From Psammoneis japonica (lineage: Eukaryota), in NCBI GenBank assembly GCA_008632985.1, contig QPGO01000132.1, positions 124,001-188,000 of the forward strand: 64,000 bases of DNA. The letters are read 5' to 3'. Position numbers and translations under genes: made by a program. Of the stretch, positions 11,023-53,000 are shown piece by piece (the stretch's first letter is position 1; each line of letters opens with the position of its first letter). The notes beneath the pieces are model-generated. The model was not told where the DNA came from. It made no database searches and worked only from the letters and a program-made list of their open reading frames with translations.

Positions 11023-12599
11023 TCTTATTTTAGTGTAAGTACAGCAGTCCCGCACCATTGGGCATCGGATGCAACAAAACAAAGAAAAGCAAACGAAAGG
11101 CGGGCAATTTTTCACCTGGTGTGGGCAGAGCGTTTTGATTGACTCGACTCGAGCGAAGCGAGACTCGTCGTCAACACGCCAAAGCAACCCGGATGTTAAA
11201 GTGTTGGAAGGAACACAAAACAGCATCAATGACCATGGGCGGAACCGGCAGTGGTGGCAGCAGAAAGGGCTCTGGCAGAAGAGTGGCCCACATCAAAGGA
11301 CAAGGAATTCTATTGGGCCCAAGTGTGATGCCAAAGAAGAGCTGGCATGAAAGCCAAATGCCTGGCTGGCCTTGGCCATTGTGTGGAAGCACACTCCAGA
11401 CAAGAAAGCAAGCATCAGAAAGCAGTCATGGCAGAGCAGCAAGTGGCCAGAGCAAGGGAAAGGCAAGAGGCTTTAGAGCAAGAATTGATTGACAAGCAAA
11501 AAAGAGATGAGGAAAAACAAACTCAGCAGGCCTTGGAAAATCTCAAGGCAGCTGTGCAAAAGAGCATTTGTGTGAGGGGACCAAAAACAGAGGAAGGGCA
11601 CAGTCAGGCAAAACAGGATGTTTCCAGAACAAGCAAGATGCAGAGAGCATTTCCAATCAAGGCAAAAAGCAAAAGCACACTCAAGCTTCAACAGCAGCAG
11701 TCCAAACAGCGGTGCAGTCGCAGCTCCTCGCAGCCAACCCTGCAGCAGAACAGTGGTCACAACAACAGAAGTCCAAATGGCGCCAGCAGCCACAATGATG
11801 GCAGTTGCAACAATCACAGTTTCCACAATGTTGGTTGTCACAGTGGCAGTTGCAATGGCAGTGGCTGCAGCGGCAGCAGTTGCAGTGCAGTCCGAGTGGC
11901 AGCAGCCGCAATGGCGCCAGTGGCAAACGGCAGCAGTCACAACAGCAGCGGTTGAAATTGCAGCAGTCACAACAGCGGCAATTTCAATGGCAGAAGTTGC
12001 AATGGCAGCAGTCAAAATGGCAGTGGTGGTGGCAGTCATGATGCCAAGAGCAGTCAACCCACATGCGCCAGCCAGCTTTTGAGGTCAGCGTGCAGCCCCC
12101 CTGCTGCGGCCGAGATTTTGTGCCCACAGCATTGAAAGACACTCCCTTCCTTGGAAGTGTCAATCAATGTCTCACCAGGGAGCAACCCTTTTTGGCTCCA
12201 CTTGGCTGTCTTGATGTTCAGAGGTGGGGGGGGCCAAGCCACACAAACATCTTTGCAAGAAGAAGTTGCGCCTGGGTGCCGGCCGCTGCAGCCAATGAGC
12301 AACATCCCATGCAGCCACTCAAATGTTCAGAGGCAAAAGCAACCTCATTTGCCAGCTGTTCCCAGACTTTTCCAAAAGTGGCAGATTGCAGATTGACACA
12401 ACGAATGCTCCATGCCCTTGAGTCGCCCCTTGTCTCCCCTCTTGACATGCTCCAGCCTCGCACGAACCAAGGCGTGTGAACAAAAATGACACTTGTGTGA
12501 AAAATCTTCATTGTCTGAACAACAAATTCTGCACTCTTCAATCTGTCAAGAATGAGCAAATTGAAACATCACAGTTTTGTGAAAAGAGCCTGAACATCA

Positions 12600-12925
12600 G
12601 CAAAAAATCTCAGAAGGAATGTTTGTCAATTTTCGGGCTCTTTCTCTCTCACCTCTCTTTTTTCTCATGTGTGCGCACTTTTCTGAGTGCAATGAAGCAT
12701 GTCATGTGTCAGCATTGTTGGTGGGAAAAGTTTGGTGGCAAAGCAACATCAGCTGTTCAAGTTGTGAGATTCCAGATTGTGGATGACAACAAAATCACAG
12801 AAGGAGTTTTCGCTCATTTTTGGACTTTGTCCAACCTGTCTCTTTTCATGGATGTGCTGCTTGTCAGAGCAAAATGTGGCATGCAATGCATTGGCATTGG
12901 AAAAGGTTTGGTGGCACAATCTAGC
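12600..12925. repeat. Degenerate ~190-bp direct duplication (subterminal-repeat-like)
   Basis: aaaatctcagaaggaatg...tctcatg...aaagtttggtggca (~12603-12740) versus aaaatcacagaaggagtt...ttttcatg...aaggtttggtggca (~12791-12916). Confidence 0.5.
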
Positions 12926-13060
12926 ATTGGCTGTTGCTGCCATCATGTGGTCTTTTTCCTGTGTTGTTTTGAGCGAGAGCTTCACGTTCGTTCGTTCTTC
13001 ATTTCACAGGTGCTTCACTCGTCTGGATGTCGTGCATCTGAATTCACTGCACTGACAACA

Positions 13061-13345
13061 ATGACTCTTGTTGAGCAATTGATCGATTGTCGTCATGCAG
13101 CGTGCAATGCATCGCTTCATGCAGCCAACAAACTCCCCTTGTGCAGCTTGTGAAGTCATGACTCTTGTCAAGCAATTGATCGATTGTCATTGTGCAGCGC
13201 ACAATGCATCACTTCACGCAGCTGATGAACTCCCCTCATGCAGCTTTTATAAAGTCACAAGCTGCACAGAGCAGGTTGTTGAATCATTGCGTCACACAGC
13301 CAACAAACTTCCCCCGTGCAGCTTGTAAAGTCACAAGCTGCACAA
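13061..13345. repeat. 97-bp tandem repeat (2 full copies plus a partial third) with reciprocal TG/CA differences
   Basis: atgactcttg...gaagtc at 13061 and 13158; third partial cagccaacaaacttcccccgtgcagcttgtaaagtc at ~13297. Confidence 0.85.
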
Positions 13346-15799
13346 GGGGAACTTGCTTGACGAATGACCGTCTGCTTCAATGGTGTCATTGTGTGGCTTT
13401 CCCCACACTGTTTGACGAGCTGCCGAAAGGCAAGAATGATGATCAAGATCACCATGATGGTGACTGATGACTGATGACTGATGAATGCGATGGGCGATGG
13501 GTGGACGGACCCCATTGACACCAAAAAAATTGACCTGATGCTGAACAAGTCAATTGTGAGATCATGTCTTCCATGCACAAGAATCTGCAGGGTTCTTTTA
13601 AAAGCCAAAGCCAGCTCCTGCTGCTGCCATGGAAAGGCCAAAGAACAAAAATGGCAGCTGCAATCTCTGCTGCCATGACTCAATGCATCTGCACCGCTCC
13701 CACGGAAAAACAACATTTTGTGTGGAAAACCACCAAGGGCAGCTGTTTTCCAGCAACAACCCAGCCAACCAGCATCACCTCAAGCATGAACATGTGTGCA
13801 TCCATGACCTCAAGCTCAAGGATGTCATGCAGGCCCAAGCACATGACTGCTGAAAAGAGTGAAAAAAGCCATTTTTCCAGGAATTGACTGACATTGTCAA
13901 CAAGCAGTGTGGTGCGCGCTTTCTCAAAAAAGAAGTCACTGGCCCCAAGCTGCAGCATGAACTGGACAATGAAGCAGCCCACAAAAAAAAGTGCAGCCAA
14001 GCCTTGCACAAAATCAACACTGCCATGAAGCAAGCATTTTGGAGAAGTGTGCTTGCTGCAGCAAGCAAACACATTCTCTCCAGTTTCTTCATTTGGGGTG
14101 TGGTTTCAGTTTTTGTCCCTGGGGCAATGCAAAAGAATGTTGCTGTTCACAAAACAGCACATGAAAAAAAGTCACGTAAAACAGTGTTGCACACAAAATG
14201 TCCCTTGCATCTGTGTGTGTCCAAATGGTCACCTCAAAAGTGCAGCCTCTTGGGACAAATGTTGGATTGTGTCTGGCCTCCGACACAAGCCATGAGAGGC
14301 AGGCAACATTTGACATCTCCACTCACATCAAATCCACAAGTTTTTGACTTGCAGCTGCAACTTGTCATTTTCCCAGTCTTGCACCATGGCATTTTCTGCT
14401 TTTGTGGCTGGGGCCCTCCTCATGGCGCTGGTGGAGCCCCCATCTTTTTCAGCACAGCACCGGTTCTTGCACTGGCAGCAGCTCCAATCTCCTCAGCAGG
14501 AGGGGCACTGCATGATGGTTGAGTGCTGATGGGTGGTGGCATCAAAACAGCAAACACACCAGTGGGCCCCACTGCAGCTTTTCTGTCATGACAAAGACAG
14601 ATCGGGCCACTCAGCTCTGCCATTGAGCTGTCAATGACCACGGGGATTGTGAGATCACTGGCAAGAATGGCAAGAGGAGCCCATGAGCCAGATCTGCTCC
14701 TTCTCCTTGTCCAACAAATCCTCAAACTCCTCTCAAAATTGACAAAACAGGAACGGTGCTCCCGACTTCTTTGGGGGGGAGAGTCTTCCAAGTGTCTCTG
14801 GCCAAAAGGTGCAGAGTGTGTTTTCTTCAAGGGCAGTTCCGCGTGTGCTGCTCTCCAGGTGAATTTGGACTTCAACGTGTCTCCAATGCAGCTGTTGGAG
14901 ACTGCTGCATGTGTCCACCTTGAAGGCAGCCCTGAGACAAAGGTCAAGTGATGCTTGCTGTGGGGCATGCCAGGATCTTCAGGAGGGCTGTCCTCACCCA
15001 TGACATGCACGGCAGTTGCTGAGTCCTCATCAAAACTCAACTCACAATGGTTGGCATGCCTCCCAGCCAGAGCAGGCATGGGTGGTCATGGTGGACCATG
15101 GCAGCACAGAGGGAAACAAGCAAGGGTGGTGACAGAACATGAAGAACAAGAAAGCTTGAGAATGGTCTTGCCATCACTGTGGTTTGTTGTTTTCTCCTTG
15201 GTCAAATTTGTGATGAGCATGTTCTCTTTGCCTGTGACTGTCACCTGCCTTTGCAGGGATGGCCTCTCTTTGTGCAAAGCTGTGAAAAACTCAACAGGTT
15301 TGAACTTTTTTTTTGTGTCTGAGTGTCCAATCTGACACTCACACTTGTTGTGAAACTCCAAATGTGCTGCACGTGTTTTGTGCAAAGAATGCCAAAAACC
15401 AACTTTATGACATTTGCCCAGACACCAGTGTGGAAAAGAAGGTGATGTCAGGCAAATTGACACTGTGGGACCCAGCCAGCAGTTCATCAGATTTTTTTTT
15501 GGGTGGAGTTGGTGAGGTCTGCACATTGCACAGGCAACTCCTCTCCCATGAACACACCTGCTTGGCAATTGTGCAGACAATGGCCAGGCTTGGCTCCTTT
15601 GGAGTTTGGAGCATGGCACCATGCACCCACCATCTCGCCATCTCAGAGCATCAAGAACACTTTTTTTGTGGTGCATTGCTGACGCAGCACCGTCTGCAGT
15701 CCTTGCAAGTTCAAAGCTTGTGAAAGCTGCCCTCTGCCTCAATTGCAAGTCCCATCCATCAACACTGAGTCTCCTCCTGCAGCATCATTTGATGCAAGA

Positions 15800-16560
15800 A
15801 TGAACAAGAAACTGACTTGGACAATGGCCCAGAAGACTTTGGGAATGATGCTGAAATTAACTCTCTGCTGATGGATGAGCTCAAGACTGGTGCCTTTGGT
15901 GACAAAAGAAATTTGAGATGGAGGAAGCACTCCATGACTTCATCAAAACAAAGCTGGGATTGCTGACTGCCACGTCTTCCTGTTGGGCAGAAATTTGTGC
16001 TTGAGAAGGCCAGCAGATCAGCACAACTGGTTCACATCCAGGACCATTGTTAAATTTGCCTCATGGCATGGAAGATGGGGGGGCACATCACACAGGAACT
16101 TGCAACATCCAGTCAACAACAGATGATCATTGATGCTGCAGCGCAAGTTTCTTCAGCTCTCAACATTGTGTGGGCCAACCAGGATGGCGACTTGGGGCTG
16201 CACAATGATGGTGCAGTTCCCAACATTGTGGTTCAATTCAGTTGGAGAAACAAATGGGGGCATGAAGAGCAAGCCACAAATGTCACGATGAACAATGCTG
16301 CAGAAATCAAACAAGGCCAGCCTGGCCTGACTGCTTGCCTGCATGTTGGTTGTCTCATCAAAGTCCAACTCAAAAGAAATGTGAACATGCTGGTGGCAAA
16401 TGTCTCAAAAGGAAGCAAAAAGACATGGGAGGCCTTGATGTTTGTTGCTTGCTCTCCACAGCATCACAGCTGACAATGCAGTCAATGGAGCCAATTGTGC
16501 CAGCAAGCCCATGTGTGCTCTCCAGGGCTCCAGGTGGTCAAGATCACACAGCAGCATCAA
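15800..16560 (+). pseudogene. Mutated relic of a putative Uma2/PD-(D/E)XK-like endonuclease-fold gene
   Basis: PNIVVQFSWRNKWGHEEQA...VGCLIKV resembles a PDxV(I/V)QFSW..K.YEE.A...GYLIKV motif recalled from diatom proteins; GH and GC sit where GY is expected; frameshifts and stops upstream. Confidence 0.35.
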
Positions 16561-18594
16561 CATTTCCCAACAGATTTGGGGAGCAGCTTTCAGACACCAA
16601 TTTGGTGAATGTTGATGAGATGGATGGTGATGCGGTGTCAACAAAAACATCTTGCCACCTGGAGAGCTGTGCCATCGACCACACCCAGATGTTGGCCAAA
16701 GTGCTTTGCTTGAGGAGAAAGGACAGGGTGGCCTCAACTTTGCCCACTTCCTTTGCTGAGATGTGTGCCACACCAGCTCTGTTTGCTGCACTCTGCTTGT
16801 GATCATTTGCATGAGGCCAGTCTCCAAAAATTGCAAGCTCTGCACTCAACTCTCCACTCACTCCTTGCCAGTGTGTCGTGCAGAGGCATGTGTTGATGAA
16901 AATGTGTCAGGGTGTCATGACATGCCTTCCTTGGCTGAGCTGCAAGACCAAGCAGCAAGCCTTCCAAAGCAAGCAACTGCCACTTCTCAAAGTGCACAGA
17001 GTGGCAAATCCAAGTGCGGGGAGCATTGACAGGCTTTCAAGCATGCGGCACAACAACCGGCCTGGCCTTGCATTTTACACCACTGGTGCTGCTGGCGGTG
17101 CATCTGACATTCCATTTTTCCCACTGCCATGGAATTCCAGGCCAGTGGTGAGTTCAACGTGGCAAGCACCTGTGGAGGCCACTTCTCCTGATGACAGCGC
17201 CTGCTCTCTGACTCTCGTCACATTTTTTTGGTTTGGTCTCCAAGAACCTCCTCATTTTGCTGGCCTGGTCCAGAGATGAGGCAGTCGGCTGGCCTCTTGC
17301 CAAAACAGGAACATGGATCAATGAACTCCATGTGACAACATTGGTGCAAACCAGAGGTGCTGCTTTTTGCAGCAAACGTGTGCTTGGGGCAAGACCTTGG
17401 CCGCCACAGCTCAGCGGCTGCAGTCAAGAAAACGAAACAGTGGAGAAGAGCTTCACCTTGGAAACATCATGATGACACCACTTGTTTTGGCAGAAGTCCA
17501 GCATCCATTGGGCACAGTGGTGCCAGCAGACCAACTCCATCTGGCAGGATGCAAAAAACAAAAAAACGAAAAACTGGATGATGACTCCATGATTGACGAA
17601 AGCGATGGGCGATGGGCGGATGGACCCAATTGACGTTGATGTTGACCCGGAATTCCGCACTCCACATTGCCGTCACTCTCTCTCTAGCTAGAGAACACAT
17701 TGAACATTACGTAGAACTCGATCGTTGCACACCGTAGCATCTATCTACAGTGCGGTAGACTACGGTAGTCGGTGCAACTCATTGCATTTGAACGCAGTGG
17801 GGATATTTATGTTGAGAACCTTGTACAACATGCTCATGGACAAACGCACACAACGACAAACAAAAGTTACGGTGCTGCTGGTCACAGCACAAACAACGCC
17901 GCGGCTTTCATTATATTACCAACGAAACAATTGAAATTGAATGTAAGTTGATCGTAACAGCTATTGCTTGTGACAGGCTATGAATAAACATTATAAATGA
18001 TGCACAAAACTATGATCGATGGATTGTTTGCTGAATAAAATCATCGCCAAGCGCCAAGTTTCGCTTCGTGCCACTTTTCGCCTTTATTAGTAGTTCATAG
18101 CTACCCGCTATTCTTTCGCGTAGAAAATGTACTGAGAATCACGTAAGAGCTGTGCACACGCTGTTCCGTGTGCGACAGCGCGAGACGAGAGGAGCCGCTG
18201 GCGCTGAAATTAAATCATGTTTGCAAGGTTGTGGTCTTGACTCTATATTCATTTGAGGGCATTCTAAACTTATTGTAAATTGCGTTTTGCATTCTGCTGT
18301 CGATCTGTTGGAGAACCATAAAGAATCGTTGATCGTTGCCGTACCGTCTGTAGTGTCCCGCTGTGCTACATAGAGCGACTCCGTGTAATAAGGAGGACCC
18401 TCTAGGTTTGTTGTTCAGGCCTTTGCTAGCGGTAGATCGTTTTAGCTTTGGTTGTCCATTTTTAAGTTTTATTTTTCTCTAAAACTATGATCTATTTACA
18501 GATCGCTTTTGCGTAACATATTAGACTGGGACTCTAACCTTTTCCAATACTATTTTCTCTGATCCCTGCAGGATACATGTAGCGGGAGTTAGGC

Positions 18595-21500
18595 ATGGAT
18601 TTTACGCCAGAAGAATATTATTTTCCTGAAGAATCGCCTTCCGAAGATGCTGTTGTCCCTTCACAAATGAAGATAAGGAATCAAGCCCAAGAACTCCCCG
18701 ATGAGGCTGCACGGGCAGGGCAGTTTGGGACCGGCAATAGTGCTCCCCAGACTTTCGAGAGGCAGCCTTTACAAGCCCAAGAGCTATCCTATGCCATTGA
18801 GCCAGCAGTGACAGAGCGATTTGGCACGGACAGAAGCGGTTTTCAGTGCGAGATGCATTCGGCAGCTGATCTTGAAGCGTCCGATGATATCAATGATGCA
18901 ATAGATGAGCGCTTTGGTGCGGGCAAAAGTGATTCCCAGCTCAGCGAGATGCAGGCTGAATACCTAGCCACTGAAACGTCTCCCATTGGCAGTTATGCGA
19001 GTCTTTCCCCAAAAGATGACACTGAACTACAGGATGATTTTACGAGCAAGTCGTCCATTCACCCACAGTGCTCCCCGCGTCCAGGTGTGGTGGTTGCCGA
19101 AATGAAGTGTTCCAGTGGAAAGGATGATCTCAATGAGGGTAGAGAAGACGTTGTAGGTCTAAATGTTTTTGACGAAGTAGCCCCCGTAGTTGATGACGCT
19201 CCCGAGATAAACCCGCATTTGCATCAAGGCCCAAACAAGAAACGAAAGACATGCGAGTACGACAGCCCCGATCTCGCTGAAAGTGAACACACTCACCGGG
19301 ATCTAGGGCGTAATGGCGCATCCTTAATATCTGGTGAGCCTTTGCTAGGACACGGTGTGCGGTCGCCGGATCATTCTACCGATTTTCTCCCGGTAGGCGG
19401 TGATCAGCCCGCCGCGGAGAATGCTTTACATCTCAGCAGAAATCCAGTCTCAGTTACTGTTTCGCAAGCAAATGCTTCTTGTGGAGTTTTCGACGATGCG
19501 GACGATGGTTATCCTGCTACAGAAACCTCTATCTCACAACGGAAACATGTCAGAGCGGACTCTGGAGTCGGAGGTGATAGTGCAATACCAGGTATTTCCT
19601 CAACGAGTAGAGCAGCGTCTTTAGTTCCAAGTAGCCTAGGACAACAGGCAAGTCAGAACTTCGCTTCCGGTCCAGCATTCCCATCGAACAACGACGAGAG
19701 CAATCAAAGAGGCAGGTTGTCGCTGGGCAGCAATGCCGGATTTGGGTCACTTTCCAAGAGCTTTGGCGCACCTGTTGCGCAGTCGATGACAGAATCACAA
19801 GTTATTATTGACCCATACGATGACGAGGAAACCTCTGATGAAGGCATTGGAATGAACGGATCTTCCGGTTTTGGCCAGGTTGCTACCAGCCCAGTATCAA
19901 GGACATTGTTACACATTGCACCTCGGGGTGAAAATATTGCGGAGAAAGATGTCGACCTGGCTCCCAAACCAGAGAACGAGAAGCTTGGCAAATCCGAAAA
20001 GACGAAGAAAAAGGTTGTCCCAGTGCCGGGTGTGACGATTTCTTCAAAAGACTTCAAGTTTGCGAAAGAAACTCTCAGTGGTGTCACCGATTTGTCTATA
20101 ATTTTGCCAGAGAAAGACTGCCGGTTCTTAGGCGAGAACTTTTGGATTTTTACGGTACAGCAGCTTGAGTACGTCCTGGATCTTGGAGATACCACCGACC
20201 TTGCTCCAACAGCAGCCGCACCAGAAGACATAAGACGTGAGCTTCTGCAAACCATGGCCACGAGCTCTGCTTCAGGTGTAGAAACGGACTGTCCCAACTC
20301 TAGCGTTCGAAGCTCGCCCGATCCTGCGTCTTGCCTCCACAAAACGAATCAAGATACAGGGGCTTCTAACGGCAAAGAAGATACTCCAGCTGATAGTGAG
20401 TTGAAATTATTGGATCGATTCGATGACAAAGAATCGGCTTCTTCATCGCTAGTACCTCAAGACTTTCCGCCGTCAGCCACAATACCGCGACGCGTCACGG
20501 ACGACAACTCCTGCAATGCTGACAGCATGGAAACTGATACATCATTGAGAATCAAAGTTGATACCTTACGGTTAGCAGAACGTGCAATAAACGATACTAC
20601 GGATCTGGTTTCTTCGGAAACGTCAGACGCCGTGGCGGAAAGTTCAAGTTTCGTATATGCTTCAGAAGATACTCCAATAGCTGACGAAGTCCGGCAAACT
20701 TCTCTGTCGCTGCCAATACCGCGGCATGTCACCGAGAAAAGCTTCGAGAACAATATGGTTGCGGTTTCTTCATCCAGAGAAAACGCAGACGTTGTACCGT
20801 CGACTGAATACGTTGAGAACGCTGGAACTGGTCCAACGGCTTCTTCGGAGGGAAACAAAGTAGTTCCCATTCTTGCTAACAAGGGCGAGAAAGATGCCAT
20901 GCATGGAAAAATGGCAATACCGGTCATTCATAGCAACGACATTGTGGGTTCCTTTGTGAATGAAGTTGAGAGAGAGGGATTGGATCAAGTGTGCGCCGAT
21001 CGAGGCCAAGGACCTTTCCTATCATCGAAAGATTCGTCTGGCCCAGAGACGGAATCGTTTCCGAAAGAAAGTGTAGCGTTGGGAGCTGGGCGAGCAAATA
21101 CTTGCCATACCTCTGACATGCCAAAAACACTGCAAGGCAACGAAAACGTTCAGTTGACGGCGGGGACTCGTAACTCCGGCACACTTGACACATCGAGCGA
21201 AACGACTATAGCACCCAGTGGACAATCTCTGCTGGAAGGAGAAGCACGGCTGAAAACGTGGGCATGTGCGGTTCGAAAATGGCAAGAAGAAAGGAAACAA
21301 AAAGAAGGCGAAGAAATTGCAGAGGCTTCACAGTTTCACATCAAAAATCAGTTCTCGCTCCAGGGGCCCGTATCTTGCCTTATCCCGATACTGTTCCGAA
21401 ACTTTTTGGCATCCGTGTCTGTCAAAACGGCGTTCAGATTTTTGTCTTCAAAGAAGACAGAAGCCTCCGGGGTTGTGCACGCCTTCCAACTGTGGCGAGC

Positions 21501-26365: not shown

Positions 26366-26374
26366 GATTGAACA

Positions 26375-40157: not shown

Positions 40158-41216
40158 ATGGCCAAAGTGGATGGCGAGAGGATTACAAAGTTCGGGGCAT
40201 CATCTCCGCCCGAAACGAACGGCGAGATTGCAAAGTTCTGGTCCGACATTCAAAAGAACTTGGAGCAAGACGATTTGGATGCTCTTGAAGACCTTTTGGT
40301 GGCCGTTTGTCACTCTGACAACATGTCTTTGCTCCACTCGAAAAGTAAAAAGGGCAGGACGATTACGGAAACCATTTGCCGTTTAGAGGCGAATCCGTGT
40401 CTTTTAGATTGCCTTGATGCTGCCATTCAAAAGGGTGTCGCCGTCACGGATGAATGCTATCGGCTCGTCTTGGGTGGGAACGGATCTGGATACACAAGTC
40501 CTGATGCTTTGGTGGGTCTGATCAAGTCAGGTTATTTTCCACTGGAATTGGATGGAAGGAAAACATTGGAACGCATTGTGCACGTTTGTGACAAAGAACA
40601 TTTAGACAAAGTTTTCGGTCCACTTTTGGGAGATTTTTCGCATTCTACTGGATTGAAACAAGAGCAGATCGACAACATGAAGGCAAAACTGCCCAAAATC
40701 AAGGCTAACGGAAAGTCGTACTTTGTGAAGGGAGGCAAGTTTGCAAAGTGGTTGAAAGATTGCAAGAACGTCAGGAGGTACAAGAATGAGGAACTATTCA
40801 CTCATGAAGGGAACGTCGAGAACAAGGAGAACGAAGCATCAGAGGGAAATATGGAGAAGTCAGCCCCCCCATTAGCTCGCACGAAAAAAATTCGCTGCCC
40901 AGTATGTGGAAAGGCGTTTGAATCTCGTGACGCCCTGAAAACGCACCTAGCTAATCAATCAGGAGCAGCACACAAACGTTATCGAGCCACACACGGAAGC
41001 GACGTAGTGCCGCCAACGAAACAAGCTCGCACATCAACTACATCCCTCTGCCCAGTTTGCAGGAAGTCGTTCAATTCTCATGCTGATTTGCAAGAGCATT
41101 TGACCACTCAGTCCGGAGTAGGGCACAAACGTCATCGTGTGGAAAACGAAATGGAAAAACCGTCCGAGCCCAGGAGGCGTCTCCCGAAACGATCTCGTAT
41201 CGCACCTTCCACGTAG
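40158..41216 (+). CDS. Protein with two C2H2-type zinc fingers and a helical N-terminal domain
   Basis: CPVCGKAFESRDALKTHL..H and CPVCRKSFNSHADLQEHL..H. Confidence 0.8.
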   Translation: MAKVDGERITKFGASSPPETNGEIAKFWSDIQKNLEQDDLDALEDLLVAVCHSDNMSLLHSKSKKGRTITETICRLEANPCLLDCLDAAIQKGVAVTDECYRLVLGGNGSGYTSPDALVGLIKSGYFPLELDGRKTLERIVHVCDKEHLDKVFGPLLGDFSHSTGLKQEQIDNMKAKLPKIKANGKSYFVKGGKFAKWLKDCKNVRRYKNEELFTHEGNVENKENEASEGNMEKSAPPLARTKKIRCPVCGKAFESRDALKTHLANQSGAAHKRYRATHGSDVVPPTKQARTSTTSLCPVCRKSFNSHADLQEHLTTQSGVGHKRHRVENEMEKPSEPRRRLPKRSRIAPST

Positions 41217-41627
41217 TTGTAGTAAGCGAACGACCCGTTCTAGAGAGTATAAGTACAACGCAGTTTCATATCAAGTAAAAGCTTTACAAACGGAGTTCGG
41301 CTGCACGATGCAAGTCTCTAGATTGGAGCATGACCATGCCTTGTGCTTCTGTTCAATCACACCCTCAACTAATCTGTCCATCAAACACAACCTGATGAGA
41401 TGCGTCCCTGGCTCTGGGGGCTGCTCGAGCCTTCTGCAGCAACCGGTAGCCTTTGTAGTCAAGCTGACAAGCTTCTCCATCCTGAAACGTTTGTCCGCGG
41501 TTGAGAAACGCGTCTTTATTTCAAGCTCGGCATCTGAACGGAAGTACTCAAACACATTTTCGCGCCACTTTAAAACCACGCTTCCCACACAATACCAACA
41601 TCCCCCAAGCCGAGGCACGCCAACGTA

Positions 41628-41781
41628 AAGGAATCCATCAAATTTAACTCGAGCCGGAGGCTTTAAGAACATCAAGATTTTTGAAGGCCAGTCTCGCTCT
41701 TGATAAGGAATCCATCTGCTTTAACTCGAGCCGGAGACTTTAAAAACGTCAAGATTTTTGAAGGCCAGTCTCGCTCTTGAT
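41628..41781. repeat. 77-bp tandem duplication overlapping the 3' end of the STAND ATPase gene
   Basis: aaggaatccatc..tttaactcgagccggag..caagatttttgaaggccagtctcgctcttgat present twice. Confidence 0.9.
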
Positions 41782-44700
41782 CGCAGAGATGAACTGCTGT
41801 GATCTAGTACAGAGAATCTACCTTCGGTCTCTTCACAGAGCTCAAGTATGTTGCACCGAGTCTCATTGATGTGACCAACTTTAGCCTGGGCACCCCATTC
41901 ACCATAGAGTCTTTTAGCTCGAATCAGGTAGGTTTTCGCCCACGACAAATCCTTTCGCCGTCGAAAGTACTCACCAGCCCGCTCATTTGCCAGGGCTTGA
42001 ATGAATAAAGACCCAAGCCTGCCTGCAGCTGAAATTGCCTTGTCAAATCGCTTCTGTGTAGCCTTTACGTTTCCCTTCTACGTACATGCCAGGGATTCGG
42101 CTTCAAGAAGCAGCAGCATGTGGTGATAGGCAACAGCCCCCTTTCCAACCAAGCGACGGAATTGCCGGACGGCCGTGCTGCCCATTCGATAGTCTGGTGA
42201 AACATTAGACGTGGAATGAAGTCCAAACATAGTCATGGCCCGAAAAAAGATCCTGTAAGGCACAAATACTTGTGGTCCCTCTAGATCTTCAGATGACATC
42301 TTGGCATACATTGAAAAGGCTCTCGGAAGATCGTCAAATAAGTACGAAAGAACCATTCCATGGAAGTACAGTGCATGCAATGCAAGTCCGGCGTCTCCAG
42401 GGCTCCTTCCCCATCGTTCAAGCGCTTCTCGTTCAACCATGAATTCTCCGGTAAGTTCTATTTGATTCGTCGCTTCCCCCGTCAGATTCGCCACAAACTG
42501 GAAAAATGGAGCATGGTTATTAGCATAAAAATACTGATAGTCGTTCAGAAGCTCTCGGTACTTTCGAATGTCCTCCAGCAGTGGATCCAACTGAAGTCCA
42601 GAGACGAAATAGATCCGAAGGTATACGCCAGTGTCATTCAACAGATAATCAACAGATCCTCTTTCCCATTGCTTGTGGAGAGCGTCCGAAACCTGATCGA
42701 TTCTGTCATACAAGGGGAACTTCCAGTGCCTTAGGAAGTAATGAAAAAGAAGCAACGCTCGAAGATCTGAAACATGTCGCTCCTGTTTTGCGAAATGATA
42801 GCCAATCTCTCCATATCTATAGCCCTGGTCAATCATACCCATTTGTGCTAAGGCAAAGCCATAACCAACTAAGCAAACGGAAGTAGCGGCTACTCGACCG
42901 AATCGTAGTGATAGTTGGACTACTTTCAACGCTGCAAGCACGCAATGCTCGGTCTTTGACAGATTCCAGGCAACTTCTGCTAAACGCTCCAAAAACCCGG
43001 CAGCAGCAATCGCGACTGCATCGGTGGCGTCGGGCATTCCAACAAGTTCTCCACGCGACCGTGATGCCAACATCGTGCGCGTGCGGATCTGCTCATGAGG
43101 AAGACGGACCTTTACAAGTTGGCGGGGAAATGGATGCCCTAGCTCAGACAAAATATCCTGGAGGGTACTAAAAGCACCAACTGAATCGCTCTTTTGTAAT
43201 AGGCAAAGGACTTTAAAATGGTATGCATCGGACGCCTCCACTGCCGTGCGTGCATTAGCAATCACCTCACTCGCTACATCATCGCCTGCATCGAAGTGCT
43301 TGCAAAAAAATTCTACCCGACATCTGGTGCTGGCCAATCGAAGCATCAGTCCATAATGCTTGTCCCATCCCTCTTCACCAAGAAGCTCCATCCCGCTCCG
43401 AAGAAAGTCAGCAGCAGGGAAGAAACCAGAACGTCGCATAGCGAGTTCCGCTGCGTCAAAATTAATTTGGGCAAGGTCAAGCTTCTCTGTCTCGCCCACG
43501 TCTTGAGTGGGCGACAAATTGTACTGACCAGCAACAATAAGCAGCAATTGCTCTCGATCCAAGCCTTCCTTCTCTTTGTCTTTCGTCTGCGACAAGGCTC
43601 TGCGCAAGCGTCTACCAATCTTCAAATGATGCATGGATAGCTCATCACCATTCCCTAACAAGGAGTACGCGCCTTCCCGGATTCGATCGTGGGAAAATTT
43701 GTACCGCGAGTCTGATATTTGGAGCAGAAGCCCATCGGCAACCGCCGTTTGGAGAGCATATAGCAGGTCAGTCCGCTTGGTTCGATCTGACGTTTCATCA
43801 TGCATGGCATGCAAAAGTATGTCTGCAGAAAAGTGCGGAAGACCAAAGCATGATGCCGTCGACAATGCATCACTAACCTCGTCCGATAAATCCCCCAACT
43901 TGTGCGCAACAAGGTCCACAGCATTTTCTGAAAGGTCCATTTCTGATCGAATGCGATCCATATCCCACTCCCAATGGTAACGTCGCAATGAGTACTTTAG
44001 AAGTTCTCGCGTCTCCAGCAACCTCACAAACTGGATGACAGAAAAAGCGTTACCTGCCGTTCTCTGTTGGACAACTAATGCCAGCTTGCGTAACTCATCA
44101 TCCTCTTCATCATCACGGCGTAGTAACGAAGATAGTATTGACTGAATATCATGAACCGGTAAGCTTGACAAGGAAAGCTCAGTAGAATTGGAGAGCCCCT
44201 TCAACAAAAGATCCGAATCCATAGGAAGCGGCCGATGTGCACAAAGGAATAGAACTTGTTGTTTATTATGTGAATCCATGAGCAGAGTCCTTATCAAAGC
44301 TAGCGAGTCAACGCCGGCCCATTGAAGGTCGTCGAGGAACATTATAACAGGCTCTCGCGATGAAATTGTTCGCAACAGACGACGTAATGCAAATCTCTTT
44401 CTGTCAAAACTGTACTGGTTATGTTCACCGCTGCTGGTAGTATCAATGTAGCGTTTCTGTTCAGGTCCCTCGATGTTTGGCACGATCGTCTTGAGGACAG
44501 CTAACTCAGACTGCATTTCATCTTCAATGAGCTTCCTCCATGTATCCGCAGAGTCTGAAGTCCAGATAACCTGCAACAACATAGCAAAGGCATCGGTCAA
44601 AGCAGCAAGAGGGGTCGAAGGCCCTCCTACTTGCTCCTCAAACTTGCCTTCACCAAAAAGGGCCTTTTGTGTCGTGCGGAAATGGTGTACCAACGCTGTC

Positions 44701-44852
44701 TTTCCACTCCCGGCTTCACCGCGTATGAAAACAGTCACACACGCAACTTGAGGCGATTGACATTGCTGAAAAGCATCTTTCAGCTCCTTTAGCTCGCTCT
44801 CGCGACCACAGAACCGAAGATAATGCTTAAAATCGAGCTTGATTGGCGGCAT
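41721..44852 (-). pseudogene. Intronless STAND-class AAA ATPase + TPR-like protein, interrupted by an in-frame TAG at 42080-42078
   Basis: FCGRESEL, GEAGSGKT (Walker A), MFLDDLQWA (Walker B), TAGNAF, YKFSHDRIREGAY; after the stop the frame continues ALANERAGEYF..YGEWGAQAKV. Confidence 0.75.
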
Positions 44853-47519
44853 GCTCGAGCCAAACTGGAAACTGGATCCCCTGGTAGAGAGGAAATTTTG
44901 AACTTTGCTCAATCAATGAAATAAACGAGAACAGTGAACAGCACCATCAAGGTTCACGCCACGCTTCACTCCTGGGAGCACTGACATCTTCTGATGACAT
45001 TTTGACATTGGATGTGCGTTACTGCACCATAGCGGGGCGGGGGGGGGCTTGTTTCATGTAATCGTTCCTCGTAGACGACTACTACACGAGTGCCTGCGGG
45101 GTGACTTCTTTTTTCGAAAAGCTGCCCCGACATCCAAAAGCCTGTGGTATGGTTCGGAGTCGCAGAGCAGTCTTTTTGTCGTTTTGTCGATGACAATCGC
45201 TGATCGATTGCCCTCTGTCATTCTCTGACTCTGCTCTTCTCTGGCAGATGATGCTCCTGACCGAGCACTCTGGTTTTGGTTGTGGCGCAAGCCATGAGCA
45301 CCAGACCTTGAGCCAGGGCAGGGCTGGCAATTCCAGGAACCCGGAACTGGAGCTCTTTGCTCTGGAAAGCCGCAAAAGGTGGGTGGCATGGGCTGCAAGC
45401 AAAAAATCACTCTCAACTCATCAACGTGCAGCACACAATGTTGACAAAAGAAAAGAGAAAGGTTGCTGTGGCTCCTCAGGTGCTCACAGTGCAGGTGTGC
45501 AAATCGTCTCCGAAGCAGAGCAATGCAAAGCAGACCCCCACCCACTCACACAGGGGGGAGGCACAGACCACCATCTCCTGTTGGTCTCCGATCTGCACCA
45601 AATTTGTTTCCATCCACAACTCACAGATGAGACTTCTGCACAACCAGAGCATTTCTTGCACCGCCAACCAGTTTGATGGGGAAGGCCCGTCAAACTGCAG
45701 AAGTCACACATGCACGATGAAAAAGGAGCAGCCCCCCCCCTTCCCACCACACGGCTGGGCTGCTTGGAGTGAAAAAGGATTTTCCAAAGTCATGAAATGA
45801 GATGTGGAACAGGTTGGGCCCAGTTGTGTGCCATGATCACCTTGCTGGGGATGCAAGCAAAATCTTCAAAGCCTGCCACAATGTGACTCACCGGCGGAGG
45901 CATGACTTTGACTTGATCAGAAAATTTGTCTGTGATGATCAACTTTGTCATTGTTGATGTGAAGTGTGTTGAAAGCAACTGGAAAGAACCTTTGAAGGCA
46001 ACTGTGTTCATTGTGACCCTCCAATCACTGTTGAAGCTGCTCAAAACTACAGTCTTCATCATGGCAACACCCGGCTTGCCAACCTTCGGAGCACAGGCCA
46101 AATTGTTGACTTTGACTTCATGGGAAATGAAAAGCACCTGCATCATGGTTTGCTGTCAATTCATCAAGATGGCAGATGCCATCAACAGATCAAGAATGCA
46201 ATGTCAAGGAGGGAAAGATGGACAAACTTGGAATTGAAAAACAACACGATTGGCTCTCAATTGCATTTGCAGCGAAGCTCTTAAAAGCAGATGGTCCTGG
46301 ACACAACAAGGAGTGGACTCAAGTGGCATTTTGAATGGAGTCAATGGTGCATCTGTTCACTTAAAAGACAACAACATTGAGCTGCCAGTGGGTGCACCAG
46401 GAGCAACACCTGAGAAGGACAAAAGTGCAAACCATCACTTCACTTGCACAAGACTCAAGGAACAGAAAAGCATTTGTGTGCAGCCTTGAATGTGAGCTCC
46501 CTGTCATTTGGCACCATTGTCTTGGCATGTTAAATGGCCATCTGCCCCCCTCTCCTGCAAGTCCAAATTCCCAGCAAAGACTTGACGACATGGTCAAAAT
46601 GGCGTGAATGAGGTCATTTGTGTTGGTGCCAGCCATTTTTGAGTCTCTTCTGGAGAAAGCCAATGTGCCCCAAAGAGAAGCTCTTGAGTCAAACATCAGT
46701 GACCAGGAGTGCTGTTCTCATGAACAGCTTTTTTGTCAGATGCACCTCCAAGAAGCACCAGCAATCCAATGGTGTGGCAACACTGCACTGGAACATCAAA
46801 GAGTGCAGTGATGTCATCCACAGAAGGAGGCCAGGCAGAATGTCTGTGCAAAGAGTCTCTCCACAATCTGAGAGAGTCTGTGTGTGACAGGAGTCACTGA
46901 GATTTTGTCACCCTGCCATGATCAGAAAGAAAGAAGCTGACCAATCAAAAGGAAATGGGACAAAAAACAGCAAAGGATCAAAACAGTCCCATGCATTGAT
47001 GTGGACAAAGGCCCAGCAGAAGTGTCCCCTCAGATGGTGGTGTGCATCATGGCGGGCATGTGGTGCCCAGCCAAGGTTGAAACAGCATGTCACAAAACAT
47101 CATCACTGCACTTTAATCTCAAGCTCCACTCACACCAAAACAGTCTTTGTTCCTCTCACTCTGCAGTTGACTGAAGCTTGGTGCCACAAGTCTTGTGTGA
47201 GGCTGCTCCCAAGAACAGCACCATGCTGGGGAGCAAGCTGGCTTCTCCACCATCCACTCTACAACAGGTGTGAGAGAGCAACACAACACCCACCTGAATC
47301 TGTCCTGCAATTCATGGAGGCCAGCTGAACTTCTGAAAAACAAGCAAACAGAGTCAGGCTGATTCCCATTTGTTGATCCACCCTGAGTCTGGCAAATGCC
47401 AGGGAGGTGGGCAAACCCCCTCAAACAGATCCACACAAGCTTGCAAACCCTCTCTGGCATGTCCTCATGTTGTGTTGGTGCTGTCAGGACTCCAAAGACA
47501 TCAGAGCATGCTCAGAACC

Positions 47520-49100
47520 TTCACAGCTTCAATGAACAACAAAGATGCACAGGCAAAACAAGCAGCAGGGCTTCAGCAAAGCAATCCCCCATGTGTCTTT
47601 GCAGCTGTCATGTCCCTTTTCATGCTCCCTTGTGTGCCATCTGTTCATGGAGTCCACATCATCTGAATCTGCAACACTCAACTCTGCAGCACAGGCTTTT
47701 GTTGATGCTGCCAACCTCTCCCAGCCACACCCACATTCTTGACTGCCAGCCTGAAGCTTTCTGGGTCTGCTTCCAGTGCTTGTTTCACCAGCAACTTGAG
47801 TTCTAAGTCAACTTCTCCCAACTCCAACACATGGCCCTCTGCATTGCAAAAACCTGGCCCATCAAGCTGCCCAGCTGGAGCTTTGACATCTGTCAAACCA
47901 CTTGGCCATGCTTTGTGGTCTGTCAAGCGATGAGCGCACATCTTTTGCCACTTGCCAGCAACAGCTGGGGGCACAAACTGGGGCCCCTCTGCTGGCTGGA
48001 ACCTGTTGCATCATTCTCAGCCACAACAGCACAGTTGCAGAACCTGATGATTGCTCTGAATCTTAGCTCACTTTGTCAGATCTGTTTTGAGATCAATTTG
48101 CTCAAGTGGAGAGGATTTTTGACTGTGACAGAGCAGAAAGTCAGGCACTGCAGACCACAGTCTGTGAGATTGTTTTGGCAAATCACTGCCAAAAAAGATT
48201 GACAACACTTTGCAGCATTGCCCTGACAGCATCATTTTGATGAGCTGTTCATCTTTCATCTCTGTCAAAGGTCTGTGAGTGACTGTTGCTTTCAAGCTGT
48301 TTGCACAAGAAATGAGATGTGCCAGACAGCACCTTGGCCAGCAAAGCAGTTGGGTGCTTTTGTGACATCTTTTCCACACAACTTGCTGATGATGGTGATT
48401 TGCAATGCTGAAAGAGGTTGTTGGGGGGGGATCTGAGCATTGCAGAAAAGGCAAAAACTCACAGTGAGAAGTGTGTGCCACCATCAATGCACACATCATG
48501 ATGCCCAAGGTCAAATGCCAGCTCTGGAGGTCATGCAGAGCACTTGTCAAGATGCATGCATCAACACACAACCGCGCACTTGTGGCATGCACAAACAATC
48601 TGGTGACTGACCAACATGACATGAAAAAGGCAAAACAACAGATTGAACAATGCAGGCAGCTGTCATGGCTTGTGTGTGGTCACACAAAAAATGTGAGTTG
48701 CCACCCAGAACATTTTTAAGAACTTGGAGATCATGATCATGTGGCAGCAAGTGCCCAACAGCATCAAGTCCCTCTTCAATGGGCACATGCAAAAATCATC
48801 TTGCCATGAAGAGGCTGACAAGAAAATGTGTGCTTGTTGGCCAAGTCATGATCACACTCACCAGCTCCCTCACCAGCACCAATGGAAGCAAACAATCTAG
48901 AGAGATGCAGTCAACTGGAGTTGATGGCACCTCAAAGTTGCTCTCCACATCACATCATGAGCAAAAGATGCACCCCATCTGCCCATCTTCAGAACTTGCT
49001 CAGCACACCTGTGGCAGTTGATGGTTGCTGAGCCCCTGCTTTGAACAATGTCTAATCTGCTGAATTCAGTGCAAAGATGCTGTGCTTGTGAAGGCCAGGG
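47520..49100 (-). mobile_element. Degenerate tyrosine recombinase of a DIRS/Ngaro- or Crypton-like element
   Basis: DGPGFCNAEG..L..QALEADP..ECGCGWERLAASTKA..DDVDSMNRWHTREHEKG matches the recalled YR pattern GPAF.D..G...YG..RS.RRG..T.A...D...NRWR..E..KG; frameshifted. Confidence 0.55.
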
Positions 49101-49800
49101 AGGCAAGTTTTCATTTTCTCAAGTTTTACAAAGATCACCAACGCGGCCAAAAAATGTGATGTCAATCTGTTCTGTCAGGCAGGCAAGCAAAAAATCATCC
49201 ACTTGTCAGAGTGATGGAGTGCCTGCTTGGTGCTCAATTGAATGCACCAGAGCACATGCACTTGCAACAAGCACATTTGTTTCTAAATGGCGGCTTCAAG
49301 TCAGCAAGAGCACCAGAGTTTGTGTGCTTTTCCCACAAGATGTCCAACTCAAGATGGCCCTGGGTGGAGTGCAGCACAGCTTGGGTCAACCTTCTTGCCA
49401 AACTTTCCTTCATGCCATGACACACAAGCCAAGTCAGCCAAAACAAAAACAGGCTTGGACAGTTCTCTGGAAGATTGTGCATGTGGATCATTGGCATTGC
49501 TGGCACACAGAACAAACAACACAACATCCTTGCACCAAGAGCAACACATGGTTGCTGACTTGATTGATCCATGCACAATGAAGAGCAGGCAGACATGCCC
49601 ACTTGTGGTGCAAAGTGGGTGCAGCTTTCTTGGAGCCATCACCAACACATTGCTGGGGGGGGGCAATGCTGTTCACCTTGTTTCTTCTGAGGGAGCACTG
49701 GTGCTCAGATGTTTGTGTGCACCATGAAGTGCCACTCTGGAGGTTGGGCCTGTGGTTGTGGATTGTCCACTTGTGCCCCATGATGGGTGATGGACCAAGC

Positions 49801-50038
49801 CACCCTGCACAAGAAGTCTGGAATGTTGAACTGCGTAGAAACCGTCGTAGAATCAGCACCAGGGTGGTCAAAAAAGTCTGGAATGTCCGATTTTGACAAA
49901 AAACACACAGAATCTGGTGTAGAGTCAGTGCCAGGAATGTCCAGAAAAACACGAAAAATCCCGCCATTCCAGACTTTGTTGGCTTGTCTGGCACAAATTC
50001 CATGCAGGAATGACATTCCAGACTTTTTGTGTCGGGCA
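49801..50038. mobile_element. ~240-bp MITE with terminal inverted repeats and probable (mutated) TA target-site duplication
   Basis: Left caccctgcacaagaagtctggaatgt versus reverse complement of right tgcccgacacaaaaagtctggaatgt (21/26 identical); internal inverted pair aaagtctggaatg (~49873) / cattccagacttt (49965). Confidence 0.75.
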
Positions 50039-53000
50039 GCAAGCTCATTTGTCACATGTCAAGAAAGGCAGCACAGCACCCTGGCGCTTGCTGCCATTGC
50101 TGCTGAAGGCCACACTTGCAAATTGGGTGGCCCTGTGCTGGCTCCATTGACAAGCACAAAGTGATCTCTCCATCTGATGCTGCTTGCTCCATCAAGCAGT
50201 TTGCAAATGCCAAATTCTAAGTTTCTTTGAGATCCCCCCCTCACACAGTGGCGAAAAAATGCCTGGACTCACAACAGGTTCACCTTGCACTGGAAAAACA
50301 TGGCGCCTCAAACCAGATGCATTGGATGACAAGGAATTTGCACCTGAGCTCCCTCTTTAAGATTTGCAATTGACTGCTGCCTTTGTCTGCCCTGATGAAA
50401 AGCTTTTTCTGAGTCAACAAGAGATTTCTGTGAGCACCAACATGAAGCAAGAACTTCTCAACCTGTTGCCAAGGAAGCAAGAAGCTGAGAGCTTGGTCAT
50501 TCTGCTCATGGAAAACTTTGCAAACTTGCCACTTGGCCCAAGTGGGAGCAAAAAGGGAGTGACAACAGTTTGGTGCTCTTGGCATGCATGACCCACCACA
50601 GCTGTGGCCCAAGCAATGTCAACATGGCAGCAACACAGCCACACAGACAATGTTTGTCAGCTCTGCAGGATCAGATGTGCCACCCTGTTCCACACACTGC
50701 AGATAAAAAGAATTCATTGGGAGCTCATGCAGCAGGAGATTGTTCACACCTTTGTCAAAACAGACATGTGCTGCAATCTTGACCTTGTCTGTCTTGGTGT
50801 CTTGCCAAAGAATTTTTTCATGGCACTTTTAGAAGGAAACCAAGGAGCACACCCTTCTGTGTGTTTGTCCAAAAATTCAATGGCACGCAAAACACACAAG
50901 CTGATGAACCCAAACTGCTTGGTGCCCAAAGGTGCACAATGGCAAGCTGAAGTTTTCAATCTTGCCCACAGCAACAGCACTGGTTTTGGTTTGAGCAGAC
51001 TCTTGGCCCTCACAAATGCACAGCATCTCTCAATCAAAAGATGATGGCAGAAGGCTTGTGGCCAAAATTGAGCCACATTTCAACAATGAGATGTGGCTGT
51101 TCTGTGGGTCCACATCATTGAGCAGGAGTGCTGGTGCCAAATGCTGGACAAATGTCACAGCCAAGTTTCTTGGTGCTGAAAAGGTTGTGGATGTTGGAAC
51201 CCCACACATCTTGCCACCTTCTTGAAAACCCAAAACACACACTTGTTGCAACAAAACTCAGAAAGCTCTTTTTCAAGATTTGGCAAAGCTGAACAGGCTC
51301 CTTTTTGAAAATTGGGCAACACTGACAGAGTGCTGATGGCAAGAGCAACAAGCCAAAGAGCTTCCCACAAATTGGTGACAGTGGATGACACATGTGCCAG
51401 CAAGAAAGAGTGAGAAAAGAAGAAAGTTGAAAGTGAGTTCTTGATGATCTGGCATCAGTCTTGACAAACTTGTTTTTCATCTTGAGCACACCAAGCTGAG
51501 CAAGCGTCAATGACAGGGGGTTGCCATGAGCAACTTTCAGCCCACCCATCAGGTGCTTGTTTGTGTGGCACAAACAATGCCCCTGGTCATCATTGGCACA
51601 CCACAAAACAGATGCTCTGTCTTAACTTTCAACAGCTGAGAGTGTCTTGAGGATCTCAGCAGCTGCACATGTCCATGTCACAAGCTTCAGAGGACTCAGG
51701 TGAACAATGCAGCAGCAGCAGGTTAAAGCCAGCTAAACAGGGAGTGTCTTGTTCTTGCTGGAGATGGGCACAAAAGGCAGCTCATGTGTGTGCTTCTTCA
51801 AAGCTGGCTGGTGCATGCCAAAAAGATGCTTGGGGCGGGGGAGCACAGCACGCCACACCAGGAGATGTGCAACCCCATTGGGGGTGGCAACAAAGAATGT
51901 GGGAGAGCACTTTGCTGTGACAAAGAACACACCATGAGTGGCAGTTGCTGCTTGATTGGAAGCAGAGCATGTGCACCACTCCCTGAGTCAGATGTCTGGC
52001 ATGTGGGAAAAATCTGCACAGCACTGTTGTTTCCCACAAACTTGCAAAAGAAGGAAACTTCTTGACCGCACCCAGACTGACTGGACACTTCCTCTCTTTT
52101 CTCCACCTCTTCTTGAGAAGCAGTGTGCGCAGATTGATTGGCTGGGCCTGAAGAACCTGAAGTGGAAATGACAGGGCTGTTCCATGAGTGCTCCAACCAA
52201 CCAGCTTTCAGTGCTTCTTCTTTGCTGGTGACGCAGGAGGGTCAACATGCCACATGACAAAAAGATTTTTGAGTGAGCTCTGACACACCAGGTGGAAGAC
52301 CAGCAGACACCACCCCAGAAAGACTGAGTGTGGCTGCTGGGTGGACAACCCATGGAACTGTGGTTGCTGGCTTGCACATGCAACAAAGCGCACACCCAAA
52401 ATGAACATGCCAGGAAAAGCGAAAAAGTTTGACATTTTAAGCAACACCCTGTGTCTTGCAAAGGTGCAGGTTTCTCGCCCACAATCAAACAACACCTTTT
52501 GTGAATGAAAGGCATCTGTGTGCATGCTGGCACCATGGCATGGACACATGTGCAAGTGTGCACATGTGTGCTGGCCAGCCGCTGTTTTGAGCAATGAGTT
52601 CACACCTGCTGTGCCACCAACAGAGGAGCTCTGGGGAAACCAAAGCAATGCTCTTGCTGTGCTGCAGAAGCTGCATCAACTGCTGTGCTGCACACAGTTG
52701 CTCTCTTTGTCCATTTCTTCTCAGCTGTCTTGGTCGAACAACCTCCTGCTCGCTCCACGAGAGAGAGCTGTTGCAAGATCAACTTGCTGCTCATTGTTGG
52801 AAGCCTCCTCTGGAGTCTGGAGTCAAGTGGGGATCAATTTTTTTGACAAGCACCTTGTTGTGCGATCCGCTTCGAAATCAGATCTGGTGTGGTCTCTGCA
52901 TTGCACCGCGCTTGCTTGGCCCTTTGGTTGCTAACTCCCGGGTGCATGTTGCGTGCCTCTCTCTCCTCATCTCCGTCCGTCCGGTGCCTCATTTTCTATC

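Follow-up and report, generated by a model that had tools for sequence, protein, structure and literature searches.

TpA-erased blocks in a diatom genome record a flank-dependent A:T to G:C mutation process

The stretch analyzed here (the window) comprises 64,000 nucleotides of contig C132 (QPGO01000132.1) of the diatom Psammoneis japonica, at G000:C132:124001-188000 in an assembly of 91.4 Mb, and contains blocks from which the dinucleotide TA has been almost completely erased. Block calling with a two-state hidden Markov model (HMM) on dinucleotides delimited three of them, none assigned to a strand: block 1 (11199..17566), block 2 (27952..29682) and block 3 (45210..52863), blocks 1 and 3 being depleted in CG as well. 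Together they span 15.8 kb and retain 41 TAs. When the blocks were pooled, the ratio of observed to expected dinucleotides (O/E) was 0.04 for TA and 0.17 for CG (0.03-0.05 and 0.12-0.23 in individual blocks), CA and TG reached about 1.8, and the GC content of 48-49% resembled that of the flanks. Gene-bearing DNA has a TA O/E of 0.5-0.6 and a CG O/E of about 1.0, and the two gene-bearing intervals between the blocks, used as internal controls, were normal (17567..27951, TA 0.53 and CG 1.01; 29683..45209, TA 0.62 and CG 1.03; no strand assigned). Over the whole contig, blocks occupy 83,522 of 233,847 bases (36%). Short-read contigs of run X1 cover 45560-49828 without a single differing letter, which argues that the blocks are not an assembly error, although X1 possibly comes from the source sample and is not independent. 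In run X2 a 79-base CT..AC stretch is skipped, as in spliced RNA, and its lack of cover at 45006-53009 is not evidence.

The transposon nature of this DNA is visible as dispersed repeats, in parts of blocks 1 and 3. An unclassified repeat at 11150..13425 has 69 matching pieces elsewhere, some copies of which keep their TAs in parts. A 256-bp dispersed repeat lies at 49789..50044; its intact copy (L223) has 17 TAs, and the window copy has three (49836, 49848 and 49920) together with seven of nine CGs. A repeat piece of about 100 bp at 51317..51423 has many copies elsewhere in the genome (no strand assigned to any of the three). None of 79 stop-free frames of at least 85 amino acids reached a Pfam cut-off, the open reading frames of block 2 included; copia and gypsy proteins gave no tblastn match to the blocks at 1e-4, a DNA search with 46000-49000 of block 3 returned only that stretch itself, and the match between the 46-nt direct repeats at 13474/17589 did not continue into terminal repeats. 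The presence of dispersed repeats in the blocks, while gene DNA keeps its TAs, agrees with confinement to silent or mobile DNA. When the window copy (11550-12950) is compared with L208-L221, most copies carry an identical CA or TG at many positions where TA is kept in the divergent L217 alone; amplification of this repeat thus probably continued after the hits had occurred.

A first-pass annotation of this DNA, made from the letters alone, had claimed that RTAY (R, purine; Y, pyrimidine) is eliminated and that YTAR survives. All the contexts that it listed for residual TAs in the two largest blocks are present, although two TTAT (13248 and 15406) had escaped it, and GTAC, ATAT, GTAT and ATAC are indeed absent from these blocks: none of the 36 TAs is RTAY, 22 being YTAR and 14 mixed (5 YTAR and 7 mixed among 12 in block 1; 17 and 7 among 24 in block 3). 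Block 2, with five TAs left, holds the only RTAY of the three blocks (GTAT, 29570). Against an expectation taken from the non-block DNA of the window, a background that differs from the true ancestor, the three blocks contain 1 RTAY for about 171 expected, 16 mixed for 300 and 24 YTAR for 107, and class survival followed the same order in 58 kb of block DNA beyond the window. In all blocks of the contig, which retain 271 TAs, observed and expected numbers were 6/1013 for RTAY, 104/1744 for mixed and 161/549 for YTAR, that is, survival of 0.006, 0.060 and 0.293. RTAY is thus nearly gone as claimed, but the sparing of YTAR is only relative, about 70% of it being lost too. Among four-mers, survival fell from TTAA (0.53) through CTAA/TTAG (0.31), CTAG (0.14), GTAA/TTAC (0.11), ATAA/TTAT (0.065), CTAC/GTAG (0.06), ATAG/CTAT (0.025), ATAC/GTAT (0.011) and GTAC (0.004) to ATAT (0). 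Ancestry does not explain the deficit of RTAY, because RTAY exceeds YTAR in 76 of 80 unmutated metagenomic copia relatives (the 80 best among 218). No erased copy was found among these 80 (TA O/E 0.36-0.91), but the search favours intact copies and they serve as a baseline only. Two of them alone, L131 and L127, have more YTAR than RTAY (48:26 and 24:21), possibly a milder form of the signature in a different organism.

Survival alone cannot tell TAY>TGY from TAY>CAY, and copies of the same element were therefore compared. For each of two retroelement domains the best 30 of 150 matches were grouped and paired with a TA-rich member; five families were used, and four families without a TA-rich member as well as two divergent copies (L019 and L072) were omitted. 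Among 5522 site-copy observations, TA was kept in 4049, changed to TG in 727 and changed to CA in 746, a nearly pure A:T>G:C transition at TpA. In the asymmetric contexts the two outcomes were unequal, YTAY giving TG 237 times and CA 120 times and RTAR giving CA 231 times and TG 95 times, while the symmetric contexts were even (TG:CA 306:302 and 89:93). The window repeat at 11150-13425, compared with its TA-keeping copies, behaved likewise (RTAR to CA 41 and TG 9; YTAY to TG 13 and CA 10; Fisher p 0.002). The alignment test proposed in the first-pass annotation, in which TAY should give TG and RTA should give CA, was thereby borne out in both materials, and the observation and its strand rule are confirmed with direct before-and-after evidence within the window.

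Several lines of evidence identify TA as the ancestral state. Where reverse transcriptase has conserved Tyr codons (in YxDD, among other places), TA-poor copies have His or Cys codons, and host transporter fragments lying within blocks likewise show Tyr replaced by Cys or His. Among singletons of an 11-copy young family, A>G after T was found at 36 of 290 sites and the reverse, C>T before A, at 10 of 950, much of the 36 coming from one heavily hit copy. In addition, a comparison between the paired direct repeats of a single element showed a CA or TG difference at 32 of 36 TAs. In heavily hit tracts, 996 of 1007 changes at the A of TA were A>G. That selection or GC-biased conversion removed TA, with no special mutator, agrees with the GC gain of freshly hit copies (0.455 to 0.519 in L048 and L073); we nevertheless find this extremely improbable, as A>G outside TA is near background, catalytic Tyr codons are destroyed and sharp tracts occur within one copy.

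The influence of the flanks was quantified with a likelihood model that had a rate for each strand and left local exposure free; it was fitted to those segments in which some change had occurred (3420 of the 5522 observations). Relative to A, the rates for C, G and T were 3.6, 1.3 and 4.1 at position +1 of the target A, 2.6, 1.6 and 1.9 at +2, 0.66, 0.63 and 0.45 at -2, and 0.67, 0.81 and 0.41 at -3. As four binary terms, a pyrimidine at +1 multiplies the rate by 3.28, a purine at -2 by 1.47, A at +2 by 0.54 and T at -3 by 0.52. The direction of the weights agreed in five of five families, with the -2 term only 1.03 in one, and in 40 rounds of site bootstrap the +1 term stayed within 2.9-4.1 and all four terms stayed away from 1. 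The retroelement copies have part of their history in common (same fate in 1323 pairs, different fates in 946), so nominal p values are too small. The weights obtained from young copies predicted how well 136 six-mers have survived in the old blocks of the contig (Spearman -0.77). The first-pass annotation had suggested a count of six-mers inside and outside the blocks, which might have revealed uniform TA loss; uniform loss fits far worse (negative log-likelihood +90) than the four-term model (-154) or the +1 term alone (-82). Its strand-specific TAY target holds in that TAY is preferred, but TAR is a target too, at about one third of the rate, and its description of the pattern as an enzyme-like fingerprint is reasonable but unproven.

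Minor targets outside TA show the same bias for a 3' pyrimidine (NAY 40/2178, NAR 4/2410), the strongest being AAT (16/426), with 0/478 for AAA and 1/390 for AAG. CAY lies at 0.014-0.023 and GAA at 0.002, compared with more than 0.5 for TAY, which places CA at least 20-fold below TA. These figures bear on an origin in error-prone resynthesis, during repair in methylated repeats, by a Y-family polymerase of eta or iota type that inserts G opposite T. The genome contains five Y-family loci, one with the eta/Rev1 helix-hairpin-helix motif, TA loss and CG decay share the same tracts, and AAT is the top target outside TA. Polymerase eta acts on WA motifs, both TA and AA, and produces many transversions. 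The near-absence of AAA and AAG changes and a transversion share of 11/1007 (1%) at TA depart from this pattern, neighbouring changes are not coordinated by strand, and TA loss far outpaces CG loss, all of which make such a polymerase improbable as the source.

The first-pass annotation had also noted extra survival of TCTA/TAGA and ascribed it to longer context or protein protection. The extra survival is real: two copies of the 256-bp repeat that had been hit kept 6 of 10 TCTA/TAGA sites and none of 24 other TAs (p 1.6e-4). All three TAs kept by the window copy are GTAGA, and the second copy has retained one TCTAC and two GTAGA; in the blocks of the window, 9 of 11 CTAN survivors are TCTA and three of three GTAG survivors are GTAGA. 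It is not special to this sequence, however, but part of a wider TNTA/TANA rule. Within YTAR on contig C132, TTTA survives better than TCTA (0.54 and 0.37), and in the mixed class TTTA (0.17), TGTA (0.135) and TCTA (0.12) all exceed the remaining flanks (at most 0.054). An added TCTA/TAGA term weakened from x0.43 to x0.6 (p 0.002) once -3 and +2 were modelled, its likelihood ratio falling from 51 to 10, and TAAA leaves a residual just as large. We read the effect as one of longer context rather than of a bound protein, with a small residual (x0.6) remaining. A DNA-binding protein covering TCTA/TAGA could account for the kept sites of the 256-bp repeat and for this residual beyond four additive positions; it appears distinctly unlikely given that TTTA/TAAA is protected more and that additive weights remove most of the effect.

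Changes affect both strands to the same extent, TG and CA being about 1:1 in all 13 copies that were heavily hit. Adjacent hits fell on the same strand in 590 of 1208 cases (608 expected) and, in lightly hit copies, in 69 of 140 (71 expected), and a search for strand-coordinated clusters among the retroelement copies found none. Strand balance and lack of coordination together exclude editing of an RNA intermediate and argue against a single pass over long single-stranded DNA; many short single-strand passes would look the same as what is observed. Editing of retroelement transcripts, fixed through reverse transcription, would fit the 5' U preference of ADAR-type enzymes, and a second A_deamin gene is present in the genome. 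It predicts TG on the sense strand only, however, and the 1:1 ratio refutes it unless both strands pass through RNA; the damage also reaches non-coding repeats and fragments of host pseudogenes, and with the UAG hot spot of ADAR editing replaced here by slow TAG, we give this route almost no credence. Tract edges are sharp within single copies, where regions with 0.8-0.9 of sites mutated adjoin regions with 0.01-0.3, and fresh tracts occur in young copies at 98% identity (L035). A sequence-defined tract edge suspected in seven gypsy copies was rejected, the unmutated island having at its centre the domain by which the copies were selected and hence being an effect of ascertainment.

CG dinucleotides decay in the same tracts. 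CG>TG reached 0.044 in hit tracts and 0.0097 outside (4.5-fold), with no rise in other C>T, which suggests that the hit tracts are the methylated ones; repeats of the diatom Phaeodactylum are methylated by DNMT5 (PMC9998398). The window copy of the 256-bp repeat has lost 14 of 17 TAs and only 2 of 9 CGs, indicating that TA loss precedes CG loss, and surviving CGs obey a different rule (GCGC 0.50, TCGA 0.16). A 7-kb stretch of the contig (G000:C132:46906-53908) has a TA O/E of 0.12, a CG O/E of 0.84 and 56% GC; we take it for a recently hit stretch in which CG decay is still to come.

Genes can escape even when duplicated. The genome contains 24 silicon-transporter matches and a deaminase with diatoms as its named relatives, in line with a diatom host. 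Of the TAs in transporter genes that are 99% identical over 2.2-4 kb, 72 of 73 and 155 of 155 are kept, while silicon-transporter pseudogene fragments inside blocks are erased for both TA and CG (L088, 2759-4108; L089, 7565-8295). Location, rather than duplication or foreign origin, seems to decide.

A closely similar process has been reported in Bigelowiella natans as TpA hypermutation of integrated nucleocytoplasmic large DNA virus (NCLDV) and virophage DNA (Mettrop et al., bioRxiv 10.64898/2026.01.13.699255). The changes there all lie at TpA and are nearly always A>G or T>C, with TpG or CpA as the product depending on the strand; they are confined to silent or foreign DNA, with long-term loss of TpA and gain of CpA and TpG that includes transposon-like coding sequences; the de novo rate is raised about 1000-fold, and the process is ongoing in some lines only. 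Deamination is proposed in the preprint, with ADAT2 as the suggested enzyme. The diatom record shares the spectrum, the TpA target and the confinement to silent DNA, and in these respects the process works like TpA hypermutation in B. natans. The host is a stramenopile and B. natans a rhizarian; TA O/E reaches 0.03-0.05 in the diatom blocks and 0.45 in the B. natans viral region. The share of the contig affected (36%), the subsequent CG decay and the measured flank rule are described here for the diatom, whereas events were seen de novo in B. natans and are known in the diatom from the sequence record alone. The main text of the preprint contains none of the terms flank, trinucleotide, context, diatom and CpG and gives no flank rule. 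New with respect to that main text are the host group, the saturation, the quantitative flank rule, the lack of strand coordination and the sparing of duplicated genes. Our literature search for reports in diatoms or elsewhere, which covered few subscription papers, found only this preprint, and PMC11857586 held nothing relevant.

Repeat-induced point mutation (RIP) of ascomycetes resembles the diatom process in its dinucleotide-targeted transitions, which ruin repeats in sharp blocks. RIP acts premeiotically on any duplicated sequence, changing C to T at CpA and thereby creating TpA. The genome has 27 C5-methylase matches, several with the putatively RID-like motif HASxPCxG[FY]S. PMC9998398 places diatom DNMT4 with RID and describes RID-related methyltransferases in diatoms, and a homology-triggered process acting through such RID/DNMT4-like enzymes could be envisaged. 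We judge it highly unlikely, since the direction is opposite: TA is destroyed to CA or TG, C:G>T:A at CpA is not what is found, and RIP is also given as C>T in the B. natans preprint (10.64898/2026.01.13.699255). The near-identical transporter genes speak against a duplication trigger, an argument that is not watertight, as they may be very recent duplicates or haplotigs; the B. natans target is single-copy, and DNMT4 is diatom-only in the PMC9998398 survey. Several copies of a C5-methylase gene with a putative RID/DNMT4-like motif are themselves TA-erased, most with CG intact (L107, L108, L109, L113 and L116, on C301, C297 and C28), and two are untouched (L103 and L110, the latter with a weak chromodomain match upstream).

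The comparisons above establish the spectrum, direction, strand rule, context weights and tracts of the process. We hold, with slightly more confidence than doubt, that A:T is changed to G:C at TpA by a process of the host that operates in silent, repeat-rich chromatin. After insertion of an element, this process would act on the silent chromatin, hitting each strand independently, one base per event, on double-stranded DNA, and would drive tracts of about 1 kb and longer to saturation. T at -1 of the target A is nearly obligatory; a pyrimidine at +1 (x3.3) and a purine at -2 (x1.5) favour the event, and T at -3 or A at +2 halves its rate. The TA palindrome offers one target on either strand: both are hit fast in RTAY and slowly in YTAR, and T-Y-TA-R-A is the slowest context. 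Targeting would follow a chromatin state coupled to CG methylation, and CG loss would be a separate, slower decay of methylated CG. Our guess for the chemistry would be deamination of adenine to inosine by a zinc deaminase, with a second, stand-alone ADAR/ADAT1-type gene and ADAT2 as candidates. UV-induced TpA photoproducts were dropped as an explanation, as they would not be confined to blocks.

Sequence cannot tell whether A or its paired T was altered, since A>G in TAY is identical to T>C in RTA. The altered base could be the thymine of 5'-R-T-A-3', modified or carrying an adduct in silent chromatin and pairing with G to give T>C; spectrum and context are formally identical, and transition purity and the absence of strand coordination would be accounted for. 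We know of no natural thymine-altering enzyme with a TpA target. No Tet_JBP match was found in the genome, which is uninformative as controls were silent as well, and overall we regard an altered thymine as unlikely.

With respect to the deaminase, nine matches were found and named from reading their translations: ADAT2, an organellar-type TadA and metabolic deaminases. The ADAT2 has Asn in GCRNDRFGG. Two A_deamin genes are present, one on C40 and one on C79 (L199, G000:C79:343058-346324). The latter encodes a stand-alone ADAR/ADAT1-type catalytic domain with DCHAE and PCGNA motifs; among solved structures, it resembles the catalytic domains of ADARs (E 2.6e-11). A_deamin is the sole listed domain in 120 of 120 members of its family (the best 120 of 317), which come from centric and pennate diatoms, and distant relatives occur in chrysophytes (10 looked up, two with a species name). 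The literature search found no description of this diatom gene, which is a lead, a candidate by its presence in the genome. A more specific proposal, in which this C79 gene encodes a duplex-DNA adenine deaminase recruited to methylated repeats with the motif V-R-T-[A]-Y-B, as a defence common to diatoms and chlorarachniophytes, seems rather unlikely.

Several points weigh against the deaminase explanation. A thymine lesion or a polymerase error would leave the same record; the methylation part is something that we infer; the copies compared are not fully independent (1323 same-fate and 946 different-fate pairs); and the enzymes named above are candidates. The second A_deamin family, occurring also in chrysophytes, may be an ordinary RNA enzyme. 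In favour of deamination, the genome gave no match to the PF02245 glycosylase family, a weak negative from an exon-wise search whose control responded in 4 of 14 cases. Known adenine deaminases match in part only. The TadA-derived editors ABE7.10 and ABE8e-YA make A>G changes, favour YAY, with YAY above YAR, and disfavour AAA (PMC10188366, PMC12528748), so that the 3' pyrimidine preference (+1Y x3.3) is shared; they fit the 3' side of the rule only. They are engineered, act on single strands and accept 5' C about as well as T, whereas in the diatom 5' T is near-obligatory and hits are not coordinated by strand. Amphioxus BjADAT2 edits DNA with a preference for GAA and also deaminates C (PMC10354150), but GAA is among the coldest diatom contexts; neither acceptance of 5' C nor a GAA preference was seen here. 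ADAR2 likes 5' U and has a UAG hot spot on RNA (PMC10661471), which fits the 5' side only, TAG being slow in the diatom. Neither BjADAT2 nor ADAR2 matches TAY on both DNA strands.

Hardly any natural case is known in which A-to-G changes are targeted to genomic DNA; the one direct report that we found is from another supergroup and gives neither an enzyme nor a flank rule. The rule measured here is usable as a fingerprint of a DNA-mutating process: it provides a pass-or-fail assay for any enzyme (GTAC and ATAT fast, TTTAAA slow) and lets the diatom and B. natans be compared from an existing table of 231 de novo mutations. TA erasure explains why a third of the contig lacks recognisable genes but has long spurious open frames, two of the three stop codons being erased, and bears on the annotation and dating of diatom repeats. 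If a natural adenine deaminase acting on duplex DNA is indeed involved, it would be of interest for base editing.

A small, weaker block (8764..9382, no strand assigned; TA O/E 0.08, CG O/E 0.47) was called in the second HMM run only. Block 3 is bordered by what we take, by eye, to be a P-loop ATPase gene (42078-44912, minus strand) and, on its other side, an SNF2/RING helicase-like gene (54136-57055, plus strand). The most TA-rich kilobase of the window is 31001-32000, and a near-identical tandem repeat with 241-bp spacing at 31392-31826 is TA-rich and not erased. Finally, a frame of 495 amino acids at 59374-60861 has, by eye, what is likely to be a signal peptide, as well as GACC repeats rich in Cys and a tandem array of PTPKPTPY.

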